Virus record (IMG/VR): IMGVR_UViG_3300002461_000115
Coordinates: 1-41,312 of that record
DNA from: a virus
DNA: 41,312 nt
Reading direction: 5' to 3' (one strand)
Translations under genes and position numbers: made by a program
The notes under the pieces: generated by a model
What the model saw: the letters and a program-made list of their open reading frames with translations, nothing else
Told to the model about the DNA's origin: nothing
The model's database searches: none
Shown: positions 4,797 to 19,951 of the stretch, in pieces
Layout of the letters: each line of letters opens with the position of its first letter
Position numbering within the stretch: position 1 is the first letter of the stretch

Positions 4797-5243
4797 ATGA
4801 CCTTCACCCGCCCCGCACCCCGCGTCAAGCAAATGGACGACTACACCCCGAAGCCGAAAACGGTGGTGCTGCGCCGCGACCCGCCAGCAACGATGTGCGT
4901 GCCGCTGCCGAAGGAGAAGCCGTGGCGATGTGAAGCCTATCTCCGCATCGTCGCTCACTACCCGTGCGCTCACTGCGGCATAGAAGGCCGCTCACAGGCC
5001 GCACACGCTGACGAAGGCAAGGGGCTGGGCATCAAGGCATCGGACGCCACCGCCATACCCCTATGCGCTGATTCTCCAGGCCGCAGGGGATGCCACACGC
5101 TCATCGGCAACTTCGGGCTGTTCACGCGCGATCAACGCCGCACGCTTGAAAAGAGGTACGCACAGCAGACACGCGAGCGCATCAAGGCAGATGGACTGTG
5201 GAAGCCGGAATGGCCGGAATTTGAACAGGAGCAAGCAGCATGA
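4797..5243 (+). CDS. Cys/His-rich protein, DUF968/DUF1364-like (NinG-position nuclease-related)
   Basis: YPCAHCGIEGRSQAAHADEGKGLGIKASDATAIPLCADSPGRRGCH resembles the C..C...AH...G.G.K..D...PLC...CH pattern. Confidence 0.4.
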   Translation: MTFTRPAPRVKQMDDYTPKPKTVVLRRDPPATMCVPLPKEKPWRCEAYLRIVAHYPCAHCGIEGRSQAAHADEGKGLGIKASDATAIPLCADSPGRRGCHTLIGNFGLFTRDQRRTLEKRYAQQTRERIKADGLWKPEWPEFEQEQAA

Positions 5244-5677
5244 GATGGGAACTCACCAACACCGTAGCAGGCCGATCCATGAAGCTGGCCCAAACGGCCA
5301 AGGGCGTGCAATCCAGCGACTTGAAGGGCAAGGCTGCGAGCGATGTCGGGAAGGTGCTGCGCAAGTTGGTCAATCAAGGCTACATGACCTGCATTGATGA
5401 GAGCCGCCGCCCATACGTCTACAAGGCCACCAAGGAACAGGCTGACAAGTGGGTGGCAGATCACACGAAGCAGCCGAAGGCCATGACGATCAAGCCGCCG
5501 AAGCAGCGAGTGCAGCCGGTACTCAGCCAGCCGAAGCCGCGCCCGATCTCAAAGCCAAAGGAAGCCATCGAGCCGTACTACCCAGTCGATGCGGACGGCA
5601 ATCCGCTCTACAAGGTGACGATCGCCAAGCCATTCCCGCAGCCGACGCGGACGAACACGCACACAGGGGCTTACTGA
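5240..5677 (+). CDS. hypothetical protein with possible winged-helix N-terminus and Pro/Lys-rich tail
   Basis: Track ORF with ATGA overlap. Confidence 0.5.
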   Translation: MRWELTNTVAGRSMKLAQTAKGVQSSDLKGKAASDVGKVLRKLVNQGYMTCIDESRRPYVYKATKEQADKWVADHTKQPKAMTIKPPKQRVQPVLSQPKPRPISKPKEAIEPYYPVDADGNPLYKVTIAKPFPQPTRTNTHTGAY

Positions 5678-5886
5678 TGGGCCACCCAGCCTACGGCAGC
5701 ACGTTCCAAGGGAGCCTGCGCAGCCGGATCAAAGCCTACTTCTCGGCCAACCCCGACGAGTGGCTGACGATCACCGATGCCGCAGTCAAGTGGGGGGTGC
5801 GCGAGCCATCTGTGCGGCAAACCATGACCGATATGCGCAGGCGCGGCGAGCTGGGGCCGGGGCCGGATTTGAGGTTGCCAACATGA
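5677..5886 (+). CDS. hypothetical small HTH-like protein (69 aa)
   Basis: The ATG at 5677 overlaps the upstream TGA (TGATG). Lies inside track ORF 5449..5886. Confidence 0.45.
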   Translation: MGHPAYGSTFQGSLRSRIKAYFSANPDEWLTITDAAVKWGVREPSVRQTMTDMRRRGELGPGPDLRLPT

Positions 5887-6218
5887 GCAAGTACGGCGCG
5901 AGGAAGATCGAAATTGATGGAATCACGTTTGACAGCCGAGCCGAGGGCCTGCGGTACCTAGACCTGCGCGCCATGCTGACGGCGAAGCAAATCAGCGGCC
6001 TTGAAATGCAGGTGCCCTACGTTTTGGCCCCCAAAGCCAAGCTGTACGGCGAACAGCGCAGTCGGCCAGCTATCCGCTATTTAGTCGATTTCCGCTATCG
6101 AACACGTCAGGGAGAAGTTGTGTGCGAAGACGTGAAGGGCATGGATACGCCGCTAGGAAGGCTGAAGCGCCACTTCATGAAAACGGTTCACGGCATCGAC
6201 GTGCGGGTGGTGCGATGA
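5883..6218 (+). CDS. DUF1064 protein (endonuclease-fold, resolvase-like)
   Basis: MSKYGARKIEIDGITFDSRAEGLRYLDL...YLVDFRY...EDVKG is the DUF1064 pattern. ATGA start at 5883. Confidence 0.65.
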   Translation: MSKYGARKIEIDGITFDSRAEGLRYLDLRAMLTAKQISGLEMQVPYVLAPKAKLYGEQRSRPAIRYLVDFRYRTRQGEVVCEDVKGMDTPLGRLKRHFMKTVHGIDVRVVR

Positions 6219-9997: not shown

Positions 9998-12466
9998 ATG
10001 GCAAGAATGTCGGAAGACACACTGCGGGCGATCACCGACCAGCAGATGCGCTCTGCCGTGGGCGTGTACGGCGGCAGGCTGTCGCACCAGCGGCGCAAGG
10101 CCATGCAGTATTACCTTTGCGAGCCGGTGGGCGATCTGTCCCCGCCTGAGGTGGATGGCCGCTCGTTAGTCGTCAGCCCTGATGTGCGCAACACCATCGA
10201 AAGCATGCTCCCGCAACTGATGGTGAAGTTCGCAGGCTCTGAGCGTGTTGTGGAGTTTGAGCCGAACAAGCCGGGTGACGAGCAGAAAGCCGAGCAGGCC
10301 ACCGACTACATCAACTACGTCTTCCACCAACGCAATAACGGCGAAGGCATCTCCTACAACTGGATGAAGGACGCGCTGCTCGGCAAGAACGGCATCGTCA
10401 AAGTCTGGTGGGACGACAGGAAAGTAGAGAAGCGCGAAGACTACAAGGGGCTGAGTGCCGAGGAACTGGCGCAGTTAATGGACGACGACGAAATCGAAGT
10501 CACCGAGTCCAAGTCCTACCCCGACGAAGAAGACGCAGAGCAGCGCCAGAAGGCCATCGAGCAACTGACGCAGCAGCTACAGCAGGCCCAGCAAGCCGCC
10601 GAGATGGGCGATCCGCAGGCCATGCAAGCCGTGGAGATGCTCACGCAGCAGATGCAAGGCATCCAGTCTGCGCCGCCCGTCCTGGCCTATGACGTGACCT
10701 GCAAGCGAAGCGACAAGTGCGGGCAGATTCGCGTGGACAACGTGCCACCGGAAGAATTCCTCATCAGCCGCGAAGCGAAGACGATTGAAGGCGCGAAGTT
10801 CGTCGGCCATCGCGTGCCACGGACTGTCAGCGATCTGAAGTCGATGGGGTACAAAAACCTCGAAAACCTGTCCTCCGACGATCAGAACGTCAACTTCAAC
10901 AGCGAGCGCGTTGAGCGCCTCGCCTATGACGACGAGATGGCCGCGCTGACTGTGGATCAGACGGACACCTCCGACGATTCACAGCGCATGGTGTGGGTGA
11001 CGGAGTGCTATCTCCGTGTGGACTTCGACGGCGACGGGATTGCAGAGCTTCGCAAGGTTGTCCGTGCTGGCAACCGCGTGCTTGAGAACGAGATCATCGA
11101 CTGGGCACCGTTCGTCAGCATCACGCCGGTTCCGATGCCGCACAAGTTTTACGGTTTGTCCATCGCTGACCTGGCGCTCGATGCCCAACGAATCAAAACC
11201 AACATCCTGCGCGGCATGTTGGACAACATGTATCTGGCGATTAACGGTCGCCACTTCGCGGTTGAAGGGCAAGTCAACCTAGACGACCTGTTGGTGTCGC
11301 GTCCTGGCGGGGTTGTCCGGGTGAAGCAGCCCAACGCAGTCGGCAGGCTCGATCAGGGCGCTCCAGACTCCCAGCTCGGCCTCGGGATGATGGAGCACAT
11401 GCAGGGGTACTTGGAGGACTCCACGGGCTGGTATCGCGTCAGTCAGGGCAACGACCCATCCAGTCTGCAAGGCTCCGAGACAGCGACCAAGACCAACATC
11501 GTCACCAACAAGGCCGACATGCGGCTTGATCTGGTGGCGCGGAACTTCGCGGAAGGCTTCCGCAACCTGTTCCGCATGATGCTCAAACTGTCGGCTCAGT
11601 ACACCAACAAAGAGCAAGTCATTCGGCTTCGTGGTGAGTGGGTGACGATGGACCCGCGAGAGTGGCGCAACGGCTTCGACACCTCAATCAACGTGGGCCT
11701 GGGCACCGGCTCCAAGGATCAGCAAGTCGCGCACCTTTCCAACCTGCTGGCGCTTCAGAAAGAAGGCTTGATGATCGGCGTGGCGACACCCGAAAACATC
11801 TACCAATCAGGCGCAGAACTCATCAAGGCGATGGGCTTCAAGAACGCTGACAAGTTCCTGACCGACCCCGCAAAGATGCCTCCGCAGCCACCAGCGCCTG
11901 ACCCTGAGCAGATCAAGGGGCAGAACGCCATGCAACTGAAGCAAATGGAGCTTCAGGCCGACGCGCAGAAGTTCCAAGCCGAGACGCAACTTCGGCTGCA
12001 AGAGATTCAGATGCAGGCGCAGTCCAAGCTGCAAGAGGTTCAGGCGAATCTTGAGCTTCAGGCAGCGAACGACCAGCGAGACAGCGAGCGCGAGACGCTG
12101 AAGGCGCAACTCGACGCACAGCTTGCCCAGGCAGAGCAGGAAAACAAGCGGGCAGTGGCCGAGCTACAGGCCACGGTCGATAAGTACAAGGCTGATCTGG
12201 ACTCACAGACCAAGCTGACCATCGCGCAGATGAACGCCCAGCAGTCGATGGAACTGGCTTCAATGCAGACGCAGCAGAAAGCCGAGTCGGCTCCGCAGAT
12301 CGACTTGGCACCCATTCAAGACGCCTTGAAACAGATCATGGACTACGCCAACGCGCCCGTGGAGATTGTCAGAGGCCCAGACGGACGCGCGGCGGGCATC
12401 CGAAGGGGCGGCATGACCAAAACGATCAATCGCGGGCCTGACGGTCGCGCTATGGGGGTCGCATGA
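9998..12466 (+). CDS. portal protein with long Q/A-rich C-terminal coiled coil
   Basis: 822 aa following TerL. N-terminal RRKAMQYYLCEP...DGRSLVVSPDVRNTIESMLPQLMVKF is a portal-type motif. C-terminal about 200 aa are heptad-like. Confidence 0.85.
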   Translation: MARMSEDTLRAITDQQMRSAVGVYGGRLSHQRRKAMQYYLCEPVGDLSPPEVDGRSLVVSPDVRNTIESMLPQLMVKFAGSERVVEFEPNKPGDEQKAEQATDYINYVFHQRNNGEGISYNWMKDALLGKNGIVKVWWDDRKVEKREDYKGLSAEELAQLMDDDEIEVTESKSYPDEEDAEQRQKAIEQLTQQLQQAQQAAEMGDPQAMQAVEMLTQQMQGIQSAPPVLAYDVTCKRSDKCGQIRVDNVPPEEFLISREAKTIEGAKFVGHRVPRTVSDLKSMGYKNLENLSSDDQNVNFNSERVERLAYDDEMAALTVDQTDTSDDSQRMVWVTECYLRVDFDGDGIAELRKVVRAGNRVLENEIIDWAPFVSITPVPMPHKFYGLSIADLALDAQRIKTNILRGMLDNMYLAINGRHFAVEGQVNLDDLLVSRPGGVVRVKQPNAVGRLDQGAPDSQLGLGMMEHMQGYLEDSTGWYRVSQGNDPSSLQGSETATKTNIVTNKADMRLDLVARNFAEGFRNLFRMMLKLSAQYTNKEQVIRLRGEWVTMDPREWRNGFDTSINVGLGTGSKDQQVAHLSNLLALQKEGLMIGVATPENIYQSGAELIKAMGFKNADKFLTDPAKMPPQPPAPDPEQIKGQNAMQLKQMELQADAQKFQAETQLRLQEIQMQAQSKLQEVQANLELQAANDQRDSERETLKAQLDAQLAQAEQENKRAVAELQATVDKYKADLDSQTKLTIAQMNAQQSMELASMQTQQKAESAPQIDLAPIQDALKQIMDYANAPVEIVRGPDGRAAGIRRGGMTKTINRGPDGRAMGVA

Positions 12467-12660
12467 ACGAGCCAATGATCTACACAAGCCGGGGCAACCT
12501 GCCGCTGGCGCAACTGCAAGAGCGCGTGGTCTGGACTGACAACGAGCAGGAAACCATTTGCGCCATTGAGCATTGGTTTGAAGGTGAGTGCGTCCGTCGC
12601 TCGCCGCACATCTACAAACGGCAAGGGCTTGAAGTGCTCGGCCAAATAGGGGCTATCTAA
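12463..12660 (+). CDS. hypothetical protein (65 aa)
   Basis: ATGA overlap with the portal stop. Confidence 0.5.
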   Translation: MNEPMIYTSRGNLPLAQLQERVVWTDNEQETICAIEHWFEGECVRRSPHIYKRQGLEVLGQIGAI

Positions 12661-13128
12661 ATGGCGAACACAGCAGGCGTTGCAAACTCATTCAAGTCCG
12701 AGATTCTTGTCGGGCGACACCAACTCGGCTCGGTCACGCTGACATCGCGCACCAGCTTGACGGCCCCGACGACCGACACCGTGAAGGCGGCGCTCTACAA
12801 CTCTTCGGCCACGATCAACGCATCGACCACGGCCTACACGGCAACCGACGAAGCATCGGGCACTGGATACACCGCAGGCGGCATCACCGTCACCAACGCC
12901 ACGGCACCCAGCACATCGGGCACCACGGGCATCTGGACGCCTTCGGCATCGCTGGTCTATACGACCGTGAGCATCGGCCCTGTTGACTGTGTGCTGCTCT
13001 ACAACTCGACGCAGAGTAACGCGGCGATTGAAGTCTGCACGTTCACCGCCCAGACGCCTGTGGCTGCAACGCTAACGCTGACGATGCCGACGAACAACGC
13101 ATCGAATGCATTGCTTCGCATCGCGTAA
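12661..13128 (+). CDS. hypothetical virion-module protein (155 aa, Thr/Ser/Ala-rich)
   Basis: Track ORF located in the structural operon. Confidence 0.55.
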   Translation: MANTAGVANSFKSEILVGRHQLGSVTLTSRTSLTAPTTDTVKAALYNSSATINASTTAYTATDEASGTGYTAGGITVTNATAPSTSGTTGIWTPSASLVYTTVSIGPVDCVLLYNSTQSNAAIEVCTFTAQTPVAATLTLTMPTNNASNALLRIA

Positions 13129-13137
13129 GGAGCCGCT

Positions 13138-13689
13138 ATGTCACTGACTCCCGCACAACTCACCACGATCAAGGCCGCGATCCTGGCCGAGACTACGCCC
13201 GCGCTCGTCACGCTGCGCCAGGCCAATAACGAGCAAGGAATGGCCGACTTCTACAACGCGGACAGCGGCACGGTGGTGTGGCAGACAGCCGCGCCTGTGA
13301 ACGCTGTCCAAGACGCAGTGGACTACACAGCCTACACGCCGAACGGCACCATTGACGGTACCGCAGTGGTGACGAACCGGCTGCTGGCGGCGCAGACAAA
13401 ACAGATCAATCTGCAACTGATGTTGCAGGGCAAGACGACGCTTGACGCAACGCCCAACCGAGTACGGACGGCCTTGCTGGACGCCACCACGAACTTGCCG
13501 ACCGGCAACAACGGCACATTGCAGTCAGCCGCTGGCGTCGATGGCGTCCGTGTTTTGAATGCGCTAATCCGGCCCGCTACTCGCGGCGAGCGGCTCTACA
13601 CCTTGTCGGCCACTCAGACCGGCTCGGTGAGCGCGTTCCGGCTGACCTTTGAGGGCGGCTTACCGCCCAAAACATCAGCGATGCACTGA
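13138..13689 (+). CDS. hypothetical virion-module protein (183 aa)
   Basis: Strong AAGGAG SD before the ATG at 13138. Confidence 0.6.
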   Translation: MSLTPAQLTTIKAAILAETTPALVTLRQANNEQGMADFYNADSGTVVWQTAAPVNAVQDAVDYTAYTPNGTIDGTAVVTNRLLAAQTKQINLQLMLQGKTTLDATPNRVRTALLDATTNLPTGNNGTLQSAAGVDGVRVLNALIRPATRGERLYTLSATQTGSVSAFRLTFEGGLPPKTSAMH

Positions 13690-13699
13690 GGGCTTAATC

Positions 13700-14209
13700 A
13701 TGGCGACCTCTGGCGTTACCTACGGCACCTACACCGCGCTGACGGTCACAAACCTTCAGTCGCTGGCGAACGATGCGACCGACCCCTTCGGCGCGTGGCA
13801 GTCGGCGCGGATCAGCAACCTATCCGACCTTGCCAACGACCGTGAATTCATCATTGATCTGAGCACTGCCAACACAGCGCCAGCGAACGATTCTGGCGCT
13901 TACGTTTATGTCGTTCCGTGGATGAGCACCGACGGCGGCACGACGTGGATTCCCGGCGGGAACTTCGGCACGACCACCGCTCCTACAGGGAGCGAAGGCA
14001 CGGCCAGTATCAGCGACCCAAATTCAATGGGCGGCCCGCTGTTCATGCCATACAAGATCGCGCAGCAGCGGTTGCAATTGGCGTTTTCCGTCGTCACTGT
14101 TCTTGGCTGGATGCCAGACGCCGTGTCGCTTGCCATTCGCAATTGCACTGGCGCCGCCCTTTCGACAGGCTGCGTCGTCGCTCATAACCCGCTCAAGTAC
14201 ACAATCTGA
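13700..14209 (+). CDS. hypothetical virion-module protein (169 aa)
   Basis: ATG at 13700 within track ORF 13649..14209; avoids overlapping the upstream gene. Confidence 0.55.
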   Translation: MATSGVTYGTYTALTVTNLQSLANDATDPFGAWQSARISNLSDLANDREFIIDLSTANTAPANDSGAYVYVVPWMSTDGGTTWIPGGNFGTTTAPTGSEGTASISDPNSMGGPLFMPYKIAQQRLQLAFSVVTVLGWMPDAVSLAIRNCTGAALSTGCVVAHNPLKYTI

Positions 14210-15690
14210 TGTACCGCTCGTCTAGGCTCGTAAGGCAGCCGAATGCCCCGGTAGGGATAAACCACAGCAATCCCCTTGCCAAAGGCATTGCCATCGCCAT
14301 CACGTCGCAAGGCGGGGCGACTATCGACGCGGTATCAGGCGCGCTTCCGGCATCAGGCAACGGAACGCGAGCGGCTTCGGCTTACAGCTTCGGCAAGGCG
14401 AGGCAATACACCAGCGGGTCAGACTGGTTCCTGACGCCAGCATCCCTGAATGCGCCGACGCGCTATTCGTGGATGGTTCGCGCGAAGTTCACCAGCATTT
14501 CAGGCTTCAACGGTATATTTTGCAAGACAGCGAACCTTGGTACAACGAACGGGTTTGGTACTTTCAGAGACAGCGGGGTAGGCGACAATATAGTATTTTC
14601 TCATGATGCAGCAGCAGGCACTGTATTTGAGGCGGCGTCAAATCTTGTAAATGCTGGTTTGGTCACGATTGTCGTTACCTGGGATGGTGCGACAGCCAGG
14701 TATTACAGGGACGGAAGGTTTGTTGCAAGCGGCGCATACACAACTTTAGTCACAAGCGGGAATGGTTATCTAAAAGTCTGCTCAAACCGCGATACAAGCA
14801 CAACATCCGCATATCACGACCACACTATAGTTTGGCCGGGTAGAGTGCTTCGCGAACAAGAGGCTGAATATCTAAGCCTTGGCGATAACTCATATTCGCT
14901 GTTTACCAACCGTCGCATCTGGGTGCCGGTGTCGGTGGTGACAGGCGACCCTGCGCTAACAGGCAACACCGCCACAGCATCGACAGGAGCGCTCACCCCG
15001 AGTGAGTCGCTAGGCACAACAGGCAACCAGGTTACCGGCTCACAGGGCGCGGTAGCCCCGAATCTGAGCCTTGCCACGGCTGGCAACGCGGCTACGTCAA
15101 GCACTGGGGCGTTGGTAGCTTCGCTGACCATCGGACTGACGGGGCAAGGCGCAACGGCAAGCGCAGGCAGTATTGCGGTGGGTGGCGCAGGGGCGGTGGC
15201 GCTGTCTGGGAATGCAGCAACGGCCAACGCCGGGACGCCTGTTGCATCTCTGACGGTTGGGTTGCTCGGCAGCGCATCAACCGCGACTGTTGGCTCAGTC
15301 GGCGCGCCAACTGGCGACATCACGCTGGCGCTAACAGGAAGCGGAGTAACAGCCAGTGCAGGCGTGCTCGGCACGGGTGCTGTGGGGGTTGGCGGGTATG
15401 GGGACGACAAGCCAAGGCGGAAGAAACGGTTTGTCGTCAAGGTCGGCGACAAGTTGGTGGAGTACGGCAGCGCATCGGCAGCAGCCAAGGCACTAAACGC
15501 AGCGCCTGAAGCGAAGCCTGAGCCGGTGGCAGAGGTGCCGATCAGGAAGATCAAGGCACAGGCCCGCGTGTTCCAAGCCGAGCAGCAGATTCAGAACCTG
15601 TTCAAACAGCAGGACTTTGAAGCCATGCTCGCGCTGTATGAGCAGATGCAGGATGAAGACGATGTTGAATCTCTGTTGATGGCCCTATGA
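14209..15690 (+). CDS. LamG/concanavalin-A-like lectin-domain protein with Gly/Ala/Thr tandem repeats and an acidic C-terminal helix
   Basis: FNGIFCKTAN...GLVTIVVTWDGATARYYRDGRFVASG is Laminin_G_3-like. Repeats of the type L(T/S)G(N/Q)xAT(A/S)SxG lie between aa 250 and 400. Confidence 0.65.
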   Translation: MYRSSRLVRQPNAPVGINHSNPLAKGIAIAITSQGGATIDAVSGALPASGNGTRAASAYSFGKARQYTSGSDWFLTPASLNAPTRYSWMVRAKFTSISGFNGIFCKTANLGTTNGFGTFRDSGVGDNIVFSHDAAAGTVFEAASNLVNAGLVTIVVTWDGATARYYRDGRFVASGAYTTLVTSGNGYLKVCSNRDTSTTSAYHDHTIVWPGRVLREQEAEYLSLGDNSYSLFTNRRIWVPVSVVTGDPALTGNTATASTGALTPSESLGTTGNQVTGSQGAVAPNLSLATAGNAATSSTGALVASLTIGLTGQGATASAGSIAVGGAGAVALSGNAATANAGTPVASLTVGLLGSASTATVGSVGAPTGDITLALTGSGVTASAGVLGTGAVGVGGYGDDKPRRKKRFVVKVGDKLVEYGSASAAAKALNAAPEAKPEPVAEVPIRKIKAQARVFQAEQQIQNLFKQQDFEAMLALYEQMQDEDDVESLLMAL

Positions 15691-15974
15691 CACTTGAAGA
15701 ACAACTGCACAACGGCTCACGGGCCAAGGAAGTGCTGGAAAACGAGCAATTCCAAGCCGCGTTTGAAGCCACAGAAAAGGAACTGATCGAAGCATGGAAA
15801 AGCAGCCCTGCAAGAGATAACGAGGGCCGCGAAAAGTGCTGGGCATATCTGATGGTGTTGGGCAAGGTGAAGGCTCACCTTACATCCACCCTTGAAAGCG
15901 GGAAGCTAGCTGAATTAGAGGTGCGTCACAAGCAGGGGGTTGCAGACCGGATTCGATCTGCGTTTATGGGGTGA
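15687..15974 (+). CDS. small conserved head-module protein whose 3' end has been replaced by the HNH cassette
   Basis: ATGA start. Residues AYL...RHKQ (15843..15935) are re-encoded downstream at 16501..16593. Confidence 0.6.
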   Translation: MTLEEQLHNGSRAKEVLENEQFQAAFEATEKELIEAWKSSPARDNEGREKCWAYLMVLGKVKAHLTSTLESGKLAELEVRHKQGVADRIRSAFMG

Positions 15975-16462
15975 TGCCAAAGTTCGCCACTAACAATTCG
16001 GCAAACTGTGCGCTGTGTAATTCCGAACTCAGCAGCCAGCGCCTTGGACGATCCTCGCTTGCGTGAGTAGCGGCGCCGAATGTCCTCCGCTATCTCGCGC
16101 GTAATCTTTGCCCCTGACAGTGAAATGCGCCCGATAGAAACGGCATGGCGCGTGTTTTCTAGCCGAGTGCAGTACTCAAGATTGCTGACATCGTTGTTCA
16201 GCTTGTTGCCGTCAATGTGGTTAACAGTCATCCCCTCGCTGGGTGCGCCAAGAAACGCAGCCGCAACGAGTCTGTGCACGGCGTGTGTAGATATTTTCCC
16301 CGGCCTGCTTAGTTTTAGGCGCGCATACCCGCGATGGTCAACGTATTGCGTGACGGGGCGTTGCTCAGTGCAATATGGCCCAACCAAGCGCACGACTGTG
16401 CCGCAGCGAGCAACGGCGTAAACGCCTTCAAAGTCAAGTATTGGAGCGAATGTGAGCGACAT
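15926..16462 (-). CDS. free-standing HNH homing endonuclease (HNH_3 type with C-terminal HTH), antisense to the late operon
   Basis: YVDHRGYARLKLS...HAVHRLVAAAFLG...VNHIDGNKLNNDVSNLEYCTRLENTRH. Probable start MSLTF at 16462 (track ORF extends to 16645). Confidence 0.8.
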   Translation of the reverse strand: MSLTFAPILDFEGVYAVARCGTVVRLVGPYCTEQRPVTQYVDHRGYARLKLSRPGKISTHAVHRLVAAAFLGAPSEGMTVNHIDGNKLNNDVSNLEYCTRLENTRHAVSIGRISLSGAKITREIAEDIRRRYSRKRGSSKALAAEFGITQRTVCRIVSGELWHHPINADRIRSATPCL

Positions 16463-16500
16463 AGTGGAACCAAAGAGACGCGGACGGCCACCAAAGTATA

Positions 16501-16629
16501 GCGTACCTGTCCCTGTTGGCGAAGGTGAAATCGCACCTGGTTTCGACGTTGGAGACGGGCAAGCTGGCGGAGTTGGAAGTGCGCCACAAGCAGAGCCTGT
16601 TCGACAAAGCGCGGCAGTGGGCGGCGTGA
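16501..16629 (+). pseudogene. orphaned original 3' end of gene 15687 (AYLSLLAKVKSHLVSTLETGKLAELEVRHKQSLFDKARQWAA*)
   Basis: Hand translation. 25 of 31 residues identical to 15843..15935, with many synonymous differences. No start codon of its own. Confidence 0.7.
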
Positions 16630-16643
16630 GTTGGGCCAGTTTC

Positions 16644-16811
16644 ATGGCGCAGGTTCTCGATATCGTGAACAGCCGAGGCCATGACTACATCGCCAAGGCC
16701 ACGCATCCGGCCCCAGAGGCGTCGGAGATCGTCGCTTGGTACACGGTGCCAGTTGAACAAGGAAACGCGGGCTACGTCACCAAGCACGGCCAGCGGTACG
16801 AATTGATCTAA
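16644..16811 (+). CDS. possible small hypothetical protein (55 aa)
   Basis: ATG at 16644 inside track ORF 16452..16811. Weak SD. Confidence 0.3.
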   Translation: MAQVLDIVNSRGHDYIAKATHPAPEASEIVAWYTVPVEQGNAGYVTKHGQRYELI

Positions 16812-16834
16812 GGCGTTAGACAACCGCCTATGAG

Positions 16835-16854
16835 CCGCCTACGGGCGGTTTTTT
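16835..16854 (+). terminator. rho-independent terminator (CCGCC-TACG-GGCGG + T6)
   Basis: Read directly. An outer AGACAAC/GTTGTCT pairing flanks it. Confidence 0.5.
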
Positions 16855-16901
16855 GTTGTCTGTAGCTGATGTGGCATCGCTGAGAAGCGCCCCACGGGAG
16901 A

Positions 16902-17837
16902 GTGAACTTGGACAATCCTGAACAGGAATCCACACCACTGACAACTGAGTCAGCAGCCGCCCTGTTTGCGAACTTGGGCGCACCAGAAACCGAAATCGAG
17001 CGCAAGCCCGAGCCGGTTGAAGAAACCGCAGATGAACCAGTGCTTGAACTGGAGCCGGAAGCGGAAGCCGAGGCAGAGGAAGAAGATCCACTCGTCACCG
17101 TCAAGATCGACGGCAAGGCGGTGGAAGTCAAGCTGTCCGAGCTAAAGAACGGCTATCAGCGTCAAGCTGATTACACCCGCAAGACGCAAGAAGTTTCAGA
17201 AGTGAAACGGGCTGCGGAAGCGGAGTTCACCAAGGCGCAGCAAGAGCGCCAAACCTACGCGCAGAACCTCCAGCGCCTGCAAATCCAGACGGAAGCCCTG
17301 TTGCAACAGCAGCAGGCAACCGACTGGCAAGCACTGTTGGAAAGCGACCCGGTTGAGTATCTGAAACAGCAACGCATTGCCCAAGAGCAACACGCGAAGC
17401 TGAATCAAATCCAACAGGAACAGCAGCGCGTCCAACAGCAGGAAGCCTACGAAGCCCAGCAACGCCACGCCCAACACTTGCAGGATCAGCGAGAGCAACT
17501 GCTCGCCAAGATTCCGCAGTGGAAGGACGAGGCCAAAGCCAAGACCGAGAAGGCTGCACTGCGCGACTTCCTTCTGAACGAAGGCTACGACGATGAGACG
17601 GTAGGAAGCCTCGCCGACTCTCGCGCGGTAGTCATCGCCCGCAAAGCCATGCTGTACGACCAGATGGTTGCCAAGGCATCGGCAGCGGCCAAGAAGGTCT
17701 CCACCCTCCCAACGCGCGTAGAGCGTCCGGGTGTGGGTGACAACCCCTCACTGGACAAGCGCTCTGCCGCATTCCAGAAGCTGAGCAAGTCGGGCCGCGT
17801 AGAAGACGCGGCCGCCTTGTTCGCGAACCTCATTTGA
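16902..17837 (+). CDS. scaffolding protein
   Basis: Acidic N-terminus; KIDGKAVEVKLSELKNGYQRQADYTRKTQE motif; Q-rich coiled coil. Located immediately upstream of the capsid gene. Confidence 0.75.
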   Translation: MNLDNPEQESTPLTTESAAALFANLGAPETEIERKPEPVEETADEPVLELEPEAEAEAEEEDPLVTVKIDGKAVEVKLSELKNGYQRQADYTRKTQEVSEVKRAAEAEFTKAQQERQTYAQNLQRLQIQTEALLQQQQATDWQALLESDPVEYLKQQRIAQEQHAKLNQIQQEQQRVQQQEAYEAQQRHAQHLQDQREQLLAKIPQWKDEAKAKTEKAALRDFLLNEGYDDETVGSLADSRAVVIARKAMLYDQMVAKASAAAKKVSTLPTRVERPGVGDNPSLDKRSAAFQKLSKSGRVEDAAALFANLI

Positions 17838-17872
17838 TTTTCTAACGCCGAGAGGCGCTGAAAGGACGTGCC

Positions 17873-17938
17873 ATGACTGCACCAACCGGAACATTCCTCA
17901 CCACGGCTGCTATCGGCAACCGCGAAGACCTGACGGAT
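17873..17938 (+). CDS. major capsid protein, exon 1 (MTAPTGTFLTTAAIGNREDLTD)
   Basis: AAAGGA SD. Matches the N-terminus of SU10/DUF5309-type capsid proteins. In-frame TAA follows immediately in the unspliced sequence. Confidence 0.85.
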
Positions 17939-18195
17939 TAAATTGGTCCCCTTGCAGAGCGATCTGCATTGAACAATCGCGTGAATTGCTGGAACCCCCT
18001 AACGGTTGGTAGCCGAGGGCAATCAGCAGCCAAGCGTCGCAGGAATGCGGTGAAGGTTCAACGACTAGGGCACGGAGTCCAGACCGGACGGTAAAGCCCC
18101 ACGAGCGCGCGACACCCCTAGAGGGTGATGAGATAGTCTGAGCTGCAATGAAAGTTGCAGAGGGTGGGATAAAGAGCCCACCGATAACAAAACTG
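17939..18195 (+). mobile_element. group I intron 1 (257 nt, ORF-less)
   Basis: Begins after U17938 and ends with G18195. GATAGTC J8/7-P7-like element, CAGAC/GUCUG P7 candidate and a GAAA-tetraloop hairpin. Splicing restores the frame. Confidence 0.8.
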
Positions 18196-18273
18196 ATCAT
18201 TTACCGCATCAGCCCGACGCAAACGCCGGTTCTGAACATGTCGGCCAAAGCCAAGGCCACCAACACGCTGCAT
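18196..18273 (+). CDS. major capsid protein, exon 2 (IIYRISPTQTPVLNMSAKAKATNTLH)
   Basis: 26 in-frame codons matching the conserved IY-ISP-TP...H block of the family. Confidence 0.85.
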
Positions 18274-19127
18274 AGCCTATAATTTGTGCAGTTAAAACCG
18301 AGCTAATTGCTGGAACATCCTTAGAGGCCCATTCCCCGCAGTGGAAAAGTAATGGACATTGGACAATCAGCAGGAAAGAGTTACGGATACATCCTCGGGG
18401 TGTATCTAGGTGATGGATGCGTCACCTTGCAAGTCAGTCACAACAGCGGACACACTACAAAGTGGTATCCGGTGTTCCGAGTCAACACTATTGACGAAGA
18501 TTTTGCAGTCGCCATCAAACAGGCGCTTGCAGAACTGACTGACAGGCCAGTGAACATCTGTAAGCATGACGTGAAGAAGAGCAGCAAGCCGAACTATTCG
18601 CTGCGCTGCGGCTCCCCTGAGCTTTGTCAAAAGCTCGTAGACGACACGAACTCCAAAGCCATGATTCCCGCGTATGTGTGGGGCTGGTCAAAGTCTGAAA
18701 AGCTGGCGTTTATCGCTGGGTTGATGGACAGCGAGGGGTTTGTCAGCAAGAACCACCAAAAGGACACTTCCTTTTACATGGGGTTCAAGTGCTGCGAATC
18801 GTGGGTGCCTGATTTCGTCAAGCTGTTGGAATCCGTGGGGATCATGACTGGCAAATTGTCAGTCTGCCCGCCATACAAAGACGGATACCGAACACCGATG
18901 CGGTTCCACATCAAGATGGAATCATGGGTACGCGAAGGCGCGTATTTCAAGATTCAGCGCAAACAAGCGCGGATTGATGAATGGAAAAGCCGTAGGCTAT
19001 CCTCAGAGACTATATGCTTGGCCGCATAACCGGCGGATGATATAGCCCGAACTGCATCGAAAGTTGCAGAGGCAGCAGAAATGACTGCCCGCCAGCAGAG
19101 TATCGCTGGTCCTCAAGTAACAGAATG
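18274..19127 (+). mobile_element. group I intron 2 (854 nt) carrying a LAGLIDADG homing endonuclease ORF
   Basis: Begins after U18273 and ends with G19127. 6-bp P1 of CTGCAT (18268..18273) with GTGCAG (18286..18291), with U.G at the splice site. Shares core blocks with intron 1. Confidence 0.85.
18352..19029 (+). CDS. double-motif LAGLIDADG homing endonuclease (intron-encoded)
   Basis: Motifs YILGVYLGDGCV and FIAGLMDSEGFV. About 50 percent GC in sampled lines, against a visibly more GC-rich genome. Confidence 0.9.
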   Translation: MDIGQSAGKSYGYILGVYLGDGCVTLQVSHNSGHTTKWYPVFRVNTIDEDFAVAIKQALAELTDRPVNICKHDVKKSSKPNYSLRCGSPELCQKLVDDTNSKAMIPAYVWGWSKSEKLAFIAGLMDSEGFVSKNHQKDTSFYMGFKCCESWVPDFVKLLESVGIMTGKLSVCPPYKDGYRTPMRFHIKMESWVREGAYFKIQRKQARIDEWKSRRLSSETICLAA

Positions 19128-19934
19128 GAATGGCAGACCCAAGACCTGGCCGCTGTTGCAACCAGCCCGTTCAACGCGCAGGTTGAAGGCGACGTTGCAG
19201 GCGCTGGCACGACCGTGCCTGTCGGCAAGACGATCACCCCGACCGTCCGCCTGACGAACCGCACGCAGATCAGCGCCAAGACCGCCATTGTCTCGGGCAC
19301 GCAGCAAGCCATGAACCAGGCTGGCCGCAAGGACGAGATGGCCTACCAAATGTCGCTGATTTCCTTGGAAGTCAAGCGCGACATGGAAGCGGGCCTGACG
19401 CAATCCGACGTGTTGGCAACGGCTCCGCGTCAATCGCGTGGCCTGCGTGGCTGGGTGGTGGACAACGTGAACCGCAACGGCGGCACGCTGGCTTCGTACA
19501 CCGCCAACACCGGCTACACCGCTGGTACCTTGCGATCGTTCACTGAGTCTCAGGTGAAGGACGTTCTCCAGCAGGTCTATACCGCTGGTGGCGAGCCCGA
19601 CACCATCATGCTGCCGCCCGCCCTGAAGCAAACCTTCAGCGGCTTCACCGGCAACGCGACCCGCATGGACAAGTCTGAGGACGCCAAGCTGTATAGCTCG
19701 GTGGACTTCTACGTGTCCGACTTCGGCACGCTCCAGTGCGTTCCAAATCGCTTCATGGCGACTCGCGACGTGTTTGTTCTGGAGTCCTCGAAGATTGCCA
19801 TCGCCTACCTGCGTCCGTTCATGACGGTTGAGTTGGCGAAGCTGGGTGATTCGATGCAGCAACAGTTGATCGTGGAATACACGATGGAATGCCGCGCACC
19901 GAAGGCCCACGGCGCGATTTATGATGTTAACTGA
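19128..19934 (+). CDS. major capsid protein, exon 3 (EWQTQDLAAV... to stop)
   Basis: Track ORF 19125..19934. HEWQTD junction restored by splicing. Family blocks NRTQISAKTAIVSGTQQA and GRKDEMAYQ...EVKRDME. Confidence 0.9.
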   Translation, partial: EWQTQDLAAVATSPFNAQVEGDVAGAGTTVPVGKTITPTVRLTNRTQISAKTAIVSGTQQAMNQAGRKDEMAYQMSLISLEVKRDMEAGLTQSDVLATAPRQSRGLRGWVVDNVNRNGGTLASYTANTGYTAGTLRSFTESQVKDVLQQVYTAGGEPDTIMLPPALKQTFSGFTGNATRMDKSEDAKLYSSVDFYVSDFGTLQCVPNRFMATRDVFVLESSKIAIAYLRPFMTVELAKLGDSMQQQLIVEYTMECRAPKAHGAIYDVN

Positions 19935-19951
19935 TTGATTCTGCTATACTG

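Follow-up and report, generated by a model that had tools for sequence, protein, structure and literature searches.

A free-standing HNH endonuclease cassette and the likely separation of two overlapping genes in a podophage contig

The window analysed here, the whole of IMG/VR virus record IMGVR_UViG_3300002461_000115 (41,312 nt), is a podophage contig of about 41 kb belonging to the NCBI WGS set LNFM01, and our subject is a small gene of this contig, called X below, together with the antisense HNH endonuclease gene and the second small gene, Y, that lie downstream of it. The gene order in the window is terminase, SU10-type portal, several small genes, a 493-aa lectin-fold protein, X and HNH, with a further small gene, the scaffold gene and a capsid gene of the SU10 type downstream. 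Uncultured relatives are numerous: the scaffold gene is common to 80 viral contigs, nearly all of which carry one X homolog directly upstream of it. Megablast and blastn searches of the region against the INPHARED phages gave no DNA match to sequenced isolates, and at the protein level the only isolates recovered are distant (Sinorhizobium phiM5, Methylophilales phage Venkman and Sulfitobacter pCB2047, with about 30% identity in the scaffold).

Gene X is located on the + strand at 15687..15974, encodes 95 aa and belongs to phrog_8161. Its AlphaFold model (pLDDT 90.7) has helices at residues 3-18, 20-39 and 45-94, and X is predicted to be a small three-helix hairpin protein; in structure searches its PDB matches all had E > 0.6 and its viral matches were all uncharacterised podophage proteins. 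A stretch of 31 residues, AYLMVLGKVKAHLTSTLESGKLAELEVRHKQ, is encoded within X at 15843..15935, and a second version of it, AYLSLLAKVKSHLVSTLETGKLAELEVRHKQ, is encoded at 16501..16593 in a frame that runs on to a TGA at 16627..16629. Between these two copies, referred to as A and B, 25/31 aa and 64/93 nt are identical; 10 codons are the same, 15 differ synonymously and 6 non-synonymously, and the third positions match at 11/31. The BLASTP E value of 7e-14, in a window-sized search space, means that the repeat is not due to chance. A weaker resemblance extends upstream of copy B to about 16471-16474, and the longest exact match between the copies is 9 nt. Copy B lacks a start codon in the X frame, and stops lie just ahead of it (...LERM-stop-AT-stop-WNQRDADGHQSIAYL...).

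Between the copies, on the - strand at 15926..16462, lies a free-standing gene for an I-HmuI-like HNH homing endonuclease of 178 aa. The predicted protein matches Pfam PF13392 (HNH_3) with 53.8 bits against a cut-off of 24.8 over HNH residues 61-105, and phrog_59 ('HNH endonuclease') at 3.5e-44. In a phmmer search against the PDB, its residues 8-165 align with residues 6-164 of the 1U3E chain (I-HmuI) at E = 3.5e-14. The HNH motif is intact, the C-terminal region is helix-turn-helix-like, and homologs of the protein carry NUMOD4. An Rfam E-value scan of 15300..19400 detected no intron within 15801..16503 at E <= 1, and detected group I introns at 17930..18160 and, weakly, at 18776..19069; being antisense to X and Y and outside any detected intron, the HNH gene does not appear to be intron-encoded. 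A sigma-70-like promoter match upstream of it (TCGCCA-16-TATACT, 16495..16522, - strand) is at best a hint, with 1 site found where 0.6 are expected in shuffled sequences; its -10 element would lie in the imported DNA described below and its -35 element in native DNA. HNH and X share 49 nt at their 3' ends, and HNH and Y share 11 nt at their starts. The convergent X/HNH overlap (15926..15974) encodes ADRIRSA on both strands (X ...GVADRIRSAFMG, HNH ...INADRIRSATPCL), because the DNA there is an imperfect palindrome, GCAGACCGGATTCGATCTGC. A bidirectional terminator at this overlap was considered and dropped, since the hairpin is no more stable than those of shuffled sequences (z = -0.30).

Much of this had been described in a first-pass annotation made from the window alone: the 31-residue repeat, the lack of a start codon in the copy-B frame, the mainly synonymous nature of the differences and the antisense HNH gene between the copies are all borne out. 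The lower GC that it reported for the insert holds weakly, at 0.553 for the 703 bp that we delimit below as imported (window as a whole, 0.595), a value within the lowest 5.7% of 703-bp windows, and the contrast is clearer in GC3, which is 0.58 in copy A, 0.58 in HNH and 0.90 in copy B read in the X frame.

Gene Y (16452..16811, + strand, 119 aa) has a GTG start with GGAG 5 nt upstream. In its product, the N-terminus resembles an AT-hook (PKRRGRPPK) and is joined by a low-complexity linker to a conserved C-terminal domain of about 55 aa. At HNH-less (naive) loci, Y starts at an ATG that spans X codons 36-37 (xxA TGG) in the +2 frame, traverses the last 55-65 codons of X and terminates 33-189 nt past the X stop; it begins with M..P.KR[RP]GRPRK, continues with a low-complexity linker and usually ends in the conserved domain of about 55 aa. 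An ATG or GTG at the Y position, with an open reading frame (ORF) extending past the X stop, occurs at 58/66 related loci and the AT-hook-like motif at 54, and in the 46 loci that pass the strict motif the out-of-frame X/Y overlap measures 171-198 nt. Among 66 naive X genes, synonymous-codon identity is 0.50 outside the overlap and 0.84-0.97 at codons 44-49, which correspond to the Y hook. Over the overlap as a whole the signal is modest (0.57 vs 0.50) and it is strong only at the hook codons, which suggests that the Y linker is weakly constrained. An exhaustive profile search recovered full-length Y-like predicted proteins of 101-123 aa among database representatives; a word-indexed protein search with Y gave no match, and exact full-length Y sequences are absent from a collection of 15 billion proteins. 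On the strength of this sequence conservation, we regard Y as a real gene.

Since Y homologs occupy the same place at 58/66 loci, copy B is best understood as the native 5' half of Y and not as an orphan. The tract 16501..16629 matches the naive contig L167 at 124/129 nt, with 5 differences and no indels (89/93 nt over the 31-aa segment), and copy B has 90% nucleotide identity to L001. It had initially been taken for an orphaned, decaying X end, a view that these figures do not sustain; the opposite option named at the time, that 16501..16629 might belong to a separately translated conserved gene, comes close to what was found, although Y reads that DNA in a different frame. At the four naive loci with a called downstream ORF (among L165-L172), only the last 55-64 residues are called, and the hook and linker are missed. 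The C-terminal motif of Y (residues 87-116) finds matches in ten separate stretches of P0157 (1158 aa, from the representative library), and two other large proteins match the motif at several stretches; the C-terminal domain may serve as a repeat unit in other proteins.

A protein search with X returned P0028, which is 95% identical and has the window-type C-terminus, as well as P0035 and P0036 (94 aa), whose C-terminal half ...YLSLLAKVKSHLVSTLETGKLAELEVRHKQSLFDKARQWAA is exactly copy B of the window. The contigs that carry P0035 and P0036 (L165-L172) have no HNH gene; in them X is directly followed by the downstream gene and then by the scaffold gene, and they are 93-95% identical to the window downstream of 16470-16504. 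We aligned the junctions of two HNH+ genomes, the window and L164, with the naive L165, L167 and L169. The sequences agree through ...GAAGCATGGAAA, ending at 15800, and agreement resumes at TACCTGTCCCTG, starting at 16504, so that the junctions fall at 15800/15801 and 16503/16504, with 703 bp (15801..16503) standing in place of 48 bp (L167 6115..6162).

The gene X of the window is therefore a chimera of native codons 1-38 (15687..15800, + strand, ...GAAGCATGGAAA) and imported codons 39-95, and it departs from the naive allele from 15801 on. The imported segment consists of copy A (15801..15974, + strand), which comprises X codons 39-95 with the stop and holds the 31-aa stretch at 15843..15935, of the antisense HNH gene, and of a new Y 5' end (MSDIVEPKRRGRPPKYS, 16452..16503, + strand) with the start and the AT-hook in its first 17 codons. 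This new Y 5' end resembles the Y start of L053 (CCAAAGAGACGCGGRCGG..ACCAAAGTWT) more closely than it does the naive allele. Copy B proper (16504..16629, + strand) is native DNA that serves as Y linker and still reads X codons 54-94 with the old TGA. From codon 19 on, the window Y is nearly identical to the naive Y of L167, and the changes between window and naive genomes are confined to X codons 39-95 and the first 18 Y codons. Read in the X frame, the displaced 48 bp give SPQRD..GRE, and read in the Y frame they give the AT-hook; they are absent from HNH+ genomes, in which both copies of the hook region have diverged from the naive sequence. A dead relic of the original Y start, ATG GAA AAG CAG CCC TGC AAG AGA TAA (MEKQPCKR-stop), persists inside X at 15794..15820 on the + strand. 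With X ending at 15974 and Y starting at 16452, the pair is separated in the window.

The uninterrupted gene made of the X 5' part and copy B, which the first-pass annotation had predicted, is thus found in the HNH-less relatives. Its cassette was also correctly conceived as delivering a replacement 3' end; its left edge has to be moved from 15843 to 15800/15801 and its length from about 658 to 703 bp, and its inventory of X 3' end and HNH lacked the new Y start and AT-hook at 16452..16503.

The origin of copy A was assessed by comparison with L001 and with natural X variants. The third-position identity to L001 is 0.41 for copy A (codons 38-83), 0.73 for the X N-part and 0.87 for copy B (Fisher tests, P = 0.007 and 0.0004). 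The proteins nearest to the N-part have a naive-type C-part (35/38 with P0032). The copy-A-type X C-terminus reads ...SSPARDNEGREKCWAYLMVLG...GVADRIRSAFMG, and its features GREKCW.YLM.L.KVKAHLT and ..ADRIRS.. are present in natural X variants, which means that copy A can be an ordinary ortholog end and that recoding need not be assumed. These data indicate that copy A is a foreign orthologous X end; it looks like the ordinary C-terminus of an ortholog from an unsampled lineage, freed from the second reading frame, and not like a deliberately recoded sequence.

The presence of HNH at this one fixed site is polymorphic, the window, L164, L173 and L174 having the gene and L165-L172 lacking it. 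The window and L164 differ at 1 position in 15774..16503 (730 nt); in their flanks the differences number 49/374 on the left (Fisher P = 3.5e-23) and 76/1434 on the right (P = 5.8e-13). L173 represents a third background, in which the portal gene directly adjoins X, and it carries the same cassette: L164 and L173 show no difference across 15774..16562, 26/83 to the left and 14/210 to the right. In the three genomes the tract thus has 0-1 differences in 730-789 nt, and the flanks are 4-31% divergent. The near-identical tract 15774..16503 includes 27 invariant nt at its left, and position 15773, just outside, is A, T and G in the three genomes. Such near identity within divergent flanks argues that the whole cassette moves together. 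Four independent samples yielded assemblies of it, the contig from the fourth, L174, being identical to the window. Carriers are in the minority, with the copy-A end of X on four contigs (the window, two with P0028 and one with P0152) and naive X on 26 (two with P0035 and 24 with P0036). The comparisons point firmly to recent movement of the cassette between diverged genomes, and the initial suggestion of a mobile HNH cassette that brings a divergent 3' end fits both the near-identical tract and the foreign copy A.

The closest homologs of the HNH protein (51-54% identity) occupy the same X/Y site in L053 and L163; a scan of viral contigs with this protein gave nothing above 44% identity over comparable lengths, and the contexts of those homologs are unrelated. 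X is complete in both L053 (HNH 54% identical) and L163 (51%), HNH is again antisense and Y again begins at a start of its own (MSDIEPPKRRGRRPK... and MDNTPSVGKRRGRPPR..., respectively); each locus retains within X a stopped Y relic, MEDIPRKRPGRP-stop in L053 and MDEITRKRR-stop in L163, the stop codons differing between lineages. Their Y linker is short and has no X remnant. In L053 the right junction, placed against its closest naive relative L049, is near the end of the overlap. Only in the window clade, whose right junction comes directly behind the hook, is the duplication therefore visible, and all three HNH lineages have the un-overlapped X/Y architecture.

We consider it likely that a free-standing homing endonuclease cassette has un-overlapped a dual-coding gene pair. 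In these podophages with an SU10-type portal, X and Y overlap upstream of the scaffold gene, and in the window an I-HmuI-like HNH cassette (15801..16503) has taken the place of 48 bp at the start of the overlap. It has brought in a foreign but orthologous X 3' end and the HNH gene on the opposite strand, and has supplied Y with another ribosome-binding site, start codon and AT-hook. The native DNA from 16504 on is needed as the rest of Y, and the old X 3' end (copy B) persists for that reason. Copy A now works only in the X frame, its Y frame being stopped, and copy B only in the Y frame, its X frame having no start, so the 'duplication' is the footprint of two genes being un-overlapped. By analogy with established free-standing homing endonucleases, HNH would nick or cut naive genomes in or near the replaced 48 bp during co-infection, the left end would then pair with the donor X and the right end with the donor Y, and repair synthesis would transfer copy A, HNH and the new start of Y to the recipient. 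HNH+ genomes would be resistant by virtue of their two diverged hook copies, and the absence of the naive 48 bp from carriers, together with the divergence of both hooks, fits such resistance of the carrier allele. At 69% identity and a longest exact match of 9 nt, copies A and B would hardly support deletion through the repeat, a deletion that would also remove the only Y start.

A further, more speculative step is that the endonuclease targets precisely the dual-coding 48-bp segment (X 'SPQRD.EGRE' and the Y AT-hook), the most constrained part because it is read twice, and that the cassette escapes its own enzyme by carrying two diverged single-frame copies. Because Y can start only from the cassette, copy A having lost the Y frame, collapse of the repeat would delete an intact gene, and the insertion would act as a one-way ratchet. 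We offer this step tentatively and hold it to be possible but rather doubtful.

Several observations weigh against the cassette explanation as a whole. The HNH gene has no recognisable Shine-Dalgarno sequence, its sole promoter-like match is non-significant and its expression is a prediction only. Y is without family annotation, with no significant PHROG match for Y or its C-terminal domain and no significant Pfam match for that domain; its linker is of low complexity, and its conservation is in part a passive consequence of X. Outside its own cluster the best match of copy A reaches only 36-38/57 aa, the donor lineage being unsampled. The target site of HNH and the resistance of both hook copies are points that we infer, and tracts ending at the cassette edges could come from frequent recombination with selection and not from repeated homing. 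The cassettes of L053 and L163 come without a copy B, and the right junction of the window clade may be homologous or illegitimate.

The alternatives nevertheless fare worse when set against the same evidence. The cassette might have supplied an X 3' end recoded to withstand cleavage, leaving copy B as a functionless, decaying orphan; in favour are the copy-B X frame without a start and with stops upstream, the mainly synonymous differences between the copies and the uninterrupted gene in HNH-less relatives. However, copy B is the 5' half of the conserved Y in another frame, its 5 differences in 129 nt without indels give no sign of decay, and the resemblance of copy A to natural X variants (GREKCW.YLM.L.KVKAHLT) makes recoding for resistance unnecessary, so that we find this scenario improbable. 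A tandem duplication of the overlap in situ, with fast divergence of copy A and a later or independent insertion of HNH, would account for what is formally a direct repeat flanking an insert, and copy A, once released from the Y frame, would be expected to change faster at synonymous sites. It is very unlikely all the same: the third positions of copy A diverge from L001 by 59%, about twice the 27% total divergence of the non-overlapping N-part, with 10% for copy B; copy A and the N-part have their nearest relatives in different X subtypes; all 703 bp are identical across three diverged backgrounds; and HNH+ genomes lack the replaced 48 bp.

The polarity of the event could also be reversed, the HNH+ arrangement being ancestral and the X/Y overlap a later deletion product, since inserts can be lost when repeats recombine. 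A crossover of A with B would, however, yield an X with a dead Y frame and no Y start instead of the naive hook. The overlap is found in about 60 diverse lineages and HNH in three narrow ones, and every HNH+ X holds a stopped relic of the Y start, each with a different stop codon, from which it follows that the overlap came first; we can give this reversal hardly any credence. Finally, HNH might be a resident gene that is currently immobile, for example a domesticated nuclease, and the pattern the product of ordinary modular recombination. The case for homing does rest on inference, neither the ribosome-binding site nor the promoter of HNH is clear, and the carriers are a handful. Against this stand the polymorphism of HNH presence among genomes that are 93-96% identical, the near-identical cassette in divergent flanks with a tract ending at the cassette edges, the full-length similarity to I-HmuI and the intact HNH motif, and we think a resident gene unlikely.

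Other observations concern the surroundings of the locus. The portal-to-X block (window ~12450..15690), including the 493-aa lectin-fold gene, is absent in some close relatives (L169, L171, L172 and L173 were compared), in which X adjoins the portal gene directly; the tail-fibre-like 493-aa gene is not alignable with L001 at the DNA level. A terminator-like hairpin followed by a T run lies between Y and the scaffold gene (16832..16851, + strand). The N-terminus of the scaffold gene (16900..16999) is a hypervariable patch with indels, with 26 differences/100 nt between the window and L164, compared with mostly 1-6 differences/100 nt elsewhere in the gene. The major capsid gene (SU10_MCP type, 17873..19940) has two interruptions that are missing from L164 and L167. 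One, of 257 nt (17939..18195), is a group I intron without an ORF (Rfam Intron_gpI, 80.3 bits, E = 5e-20); the other, of 854 nt (18274..19127), contains a LAGLIDADG ORF (18352..19029) and shows a weak group I match at 18776..19069. Joining 17873..17938, 18196..18273 and 19128 onward gives a capsid protein collinear with that of L167. In L015 and L074 (6193..6867), LAGLIDADG proteins 87% identical to that of the window lie downstream of scaffold genes that are 55-57% identical, and the capsid intron or its endonuclease therefore seems to be mobile between distant relatives. In some HNH-less relatives a different ORF, of 225 aa, lies between scaffold and capsid (L165 4158..4835, with a weak HNH match in L165). 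At the equivalent position L001 holds ~860 bp of inserted DNA (about 5145..6008), and the window just the intron. Selfish elements seem to have a second hotspot at the scaffold-capsid junction.

The locus is informative in several respects. For annotation, an apparent gene-end pseudogene proves to be the front half of an overlapping gene that gene callers shorten. The endonuclease insertion amounts to a natural experiment in which Y, with its own start, has been detached from X in three lineages, which argues that Y is an independent protein and not a frameshift product or a spurious ORF. The event would illustrate one route from overlapping to separated genes, previously only hinted at for T5-like spanins (PMC6139136). 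It is also well resolved, as both junctions are placed to the nucleotide, the cassette is identical in three backgrounds and the naive alleles are known, and a cassette that carries ends for both genes would be a way for an endonuclease to invade dual-coding DNA. Should the 48-bp targeting proposed above be true, insertion of selfish endonucleases would be a general way in which overlapping phage genes come apart, and also a natural experiment that reveals which overlapping ORFs are real genes.

Among characterised enzymes, I-HmuI of Bacillus phage SPO1 is encoded within a group I intron of the DNA polymerase gene. The window protein matches I-HmuI (1U3E) over its full length and has the HNH_3 core; unlike I-HmuI it is free-standing, antisense to its neighbours and not in an intron, and its activity is predicted from sequence. 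Enzymes of the I-HmuI type are nickases (PMC3428280). In its genomic setting the HNH gene resembles the seg and mob genes of T4-like phages, which encode free-standing endonucleases and stand for 'intronless homing' (review, PMC2988022; mobE, PMC2790892), as the endonuclease gene lies between host genes, would spread by break repair in co-infection and carries adjacent host sequence along. The T4 seg and mob genes, however, usually lie between separate genes and show co-conversion over variable distances, whereas in the window the insertion is within a dual-coding overlap, the cassette edges are fixed and replacement ends are supplied for both neighbours.

New terminal sequences on flanking coding regions are also created in Aeromonas phage Aeh1, where insertion of mobE, likewise free-standing and of the HNH family, splits nrdA with function kept (PMC3045599). 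There, one gene becomes two polypeptides that must reassemble, whereas here two independent overlapping genes were parted and received orthologous ends. In fungal mitochondria, atp6 and cob have partial C-terminal duplications beside GIY-YIG or LAGLIDADG ORFs (PMC6279837). The likeness lies in a second host-gene 3' end downstream of the endonuclease ORF and in a foreign in-frame end adjoining the endonuclease (15800/15801 in the window); the displaced fungal copy is a non-coding remnant, in contrast to copy B, which is kept as part of Y. Host-gene duplications beside endonuclease genes are not described in Barth et al. 2023 (PMC10448857).

The nearest precedent in outcome is that of the T5-like spanins. 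In T5 the i-spanin gene overlaps the o-spanin gene by 70 bp, whereas in Shivani they are ~700 bp apart with a GIY-YIG endonuclease gene, and in phiR201 they are likewise separated by a GIY-YIG endonuclease gene (PMC6139136). As at the X/Y locus, the pair overlaps in the phage without the endonuclease and lies apart in the one that has it; in Shivani the upstream protein is altered only at its extreme C-terminus and the downstream one only at its N-terminus, and the changes in the window are also confined to the abutting ends. The spanin case differs in that its endonuclease is GIY-YIG and not HNH, the gene pair is another one and the overlap is short. A retained diverged duplicate is not described in that report, and the direction of the event is left open, whereas in the window polarity, junctions and recent mobility are resolved. 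What sets the X/Y locus apart from these precedents is the long out-of-frame overlap, the retained native second copy, the clear polarity with junctions at nucleotide level, and the recent spread.

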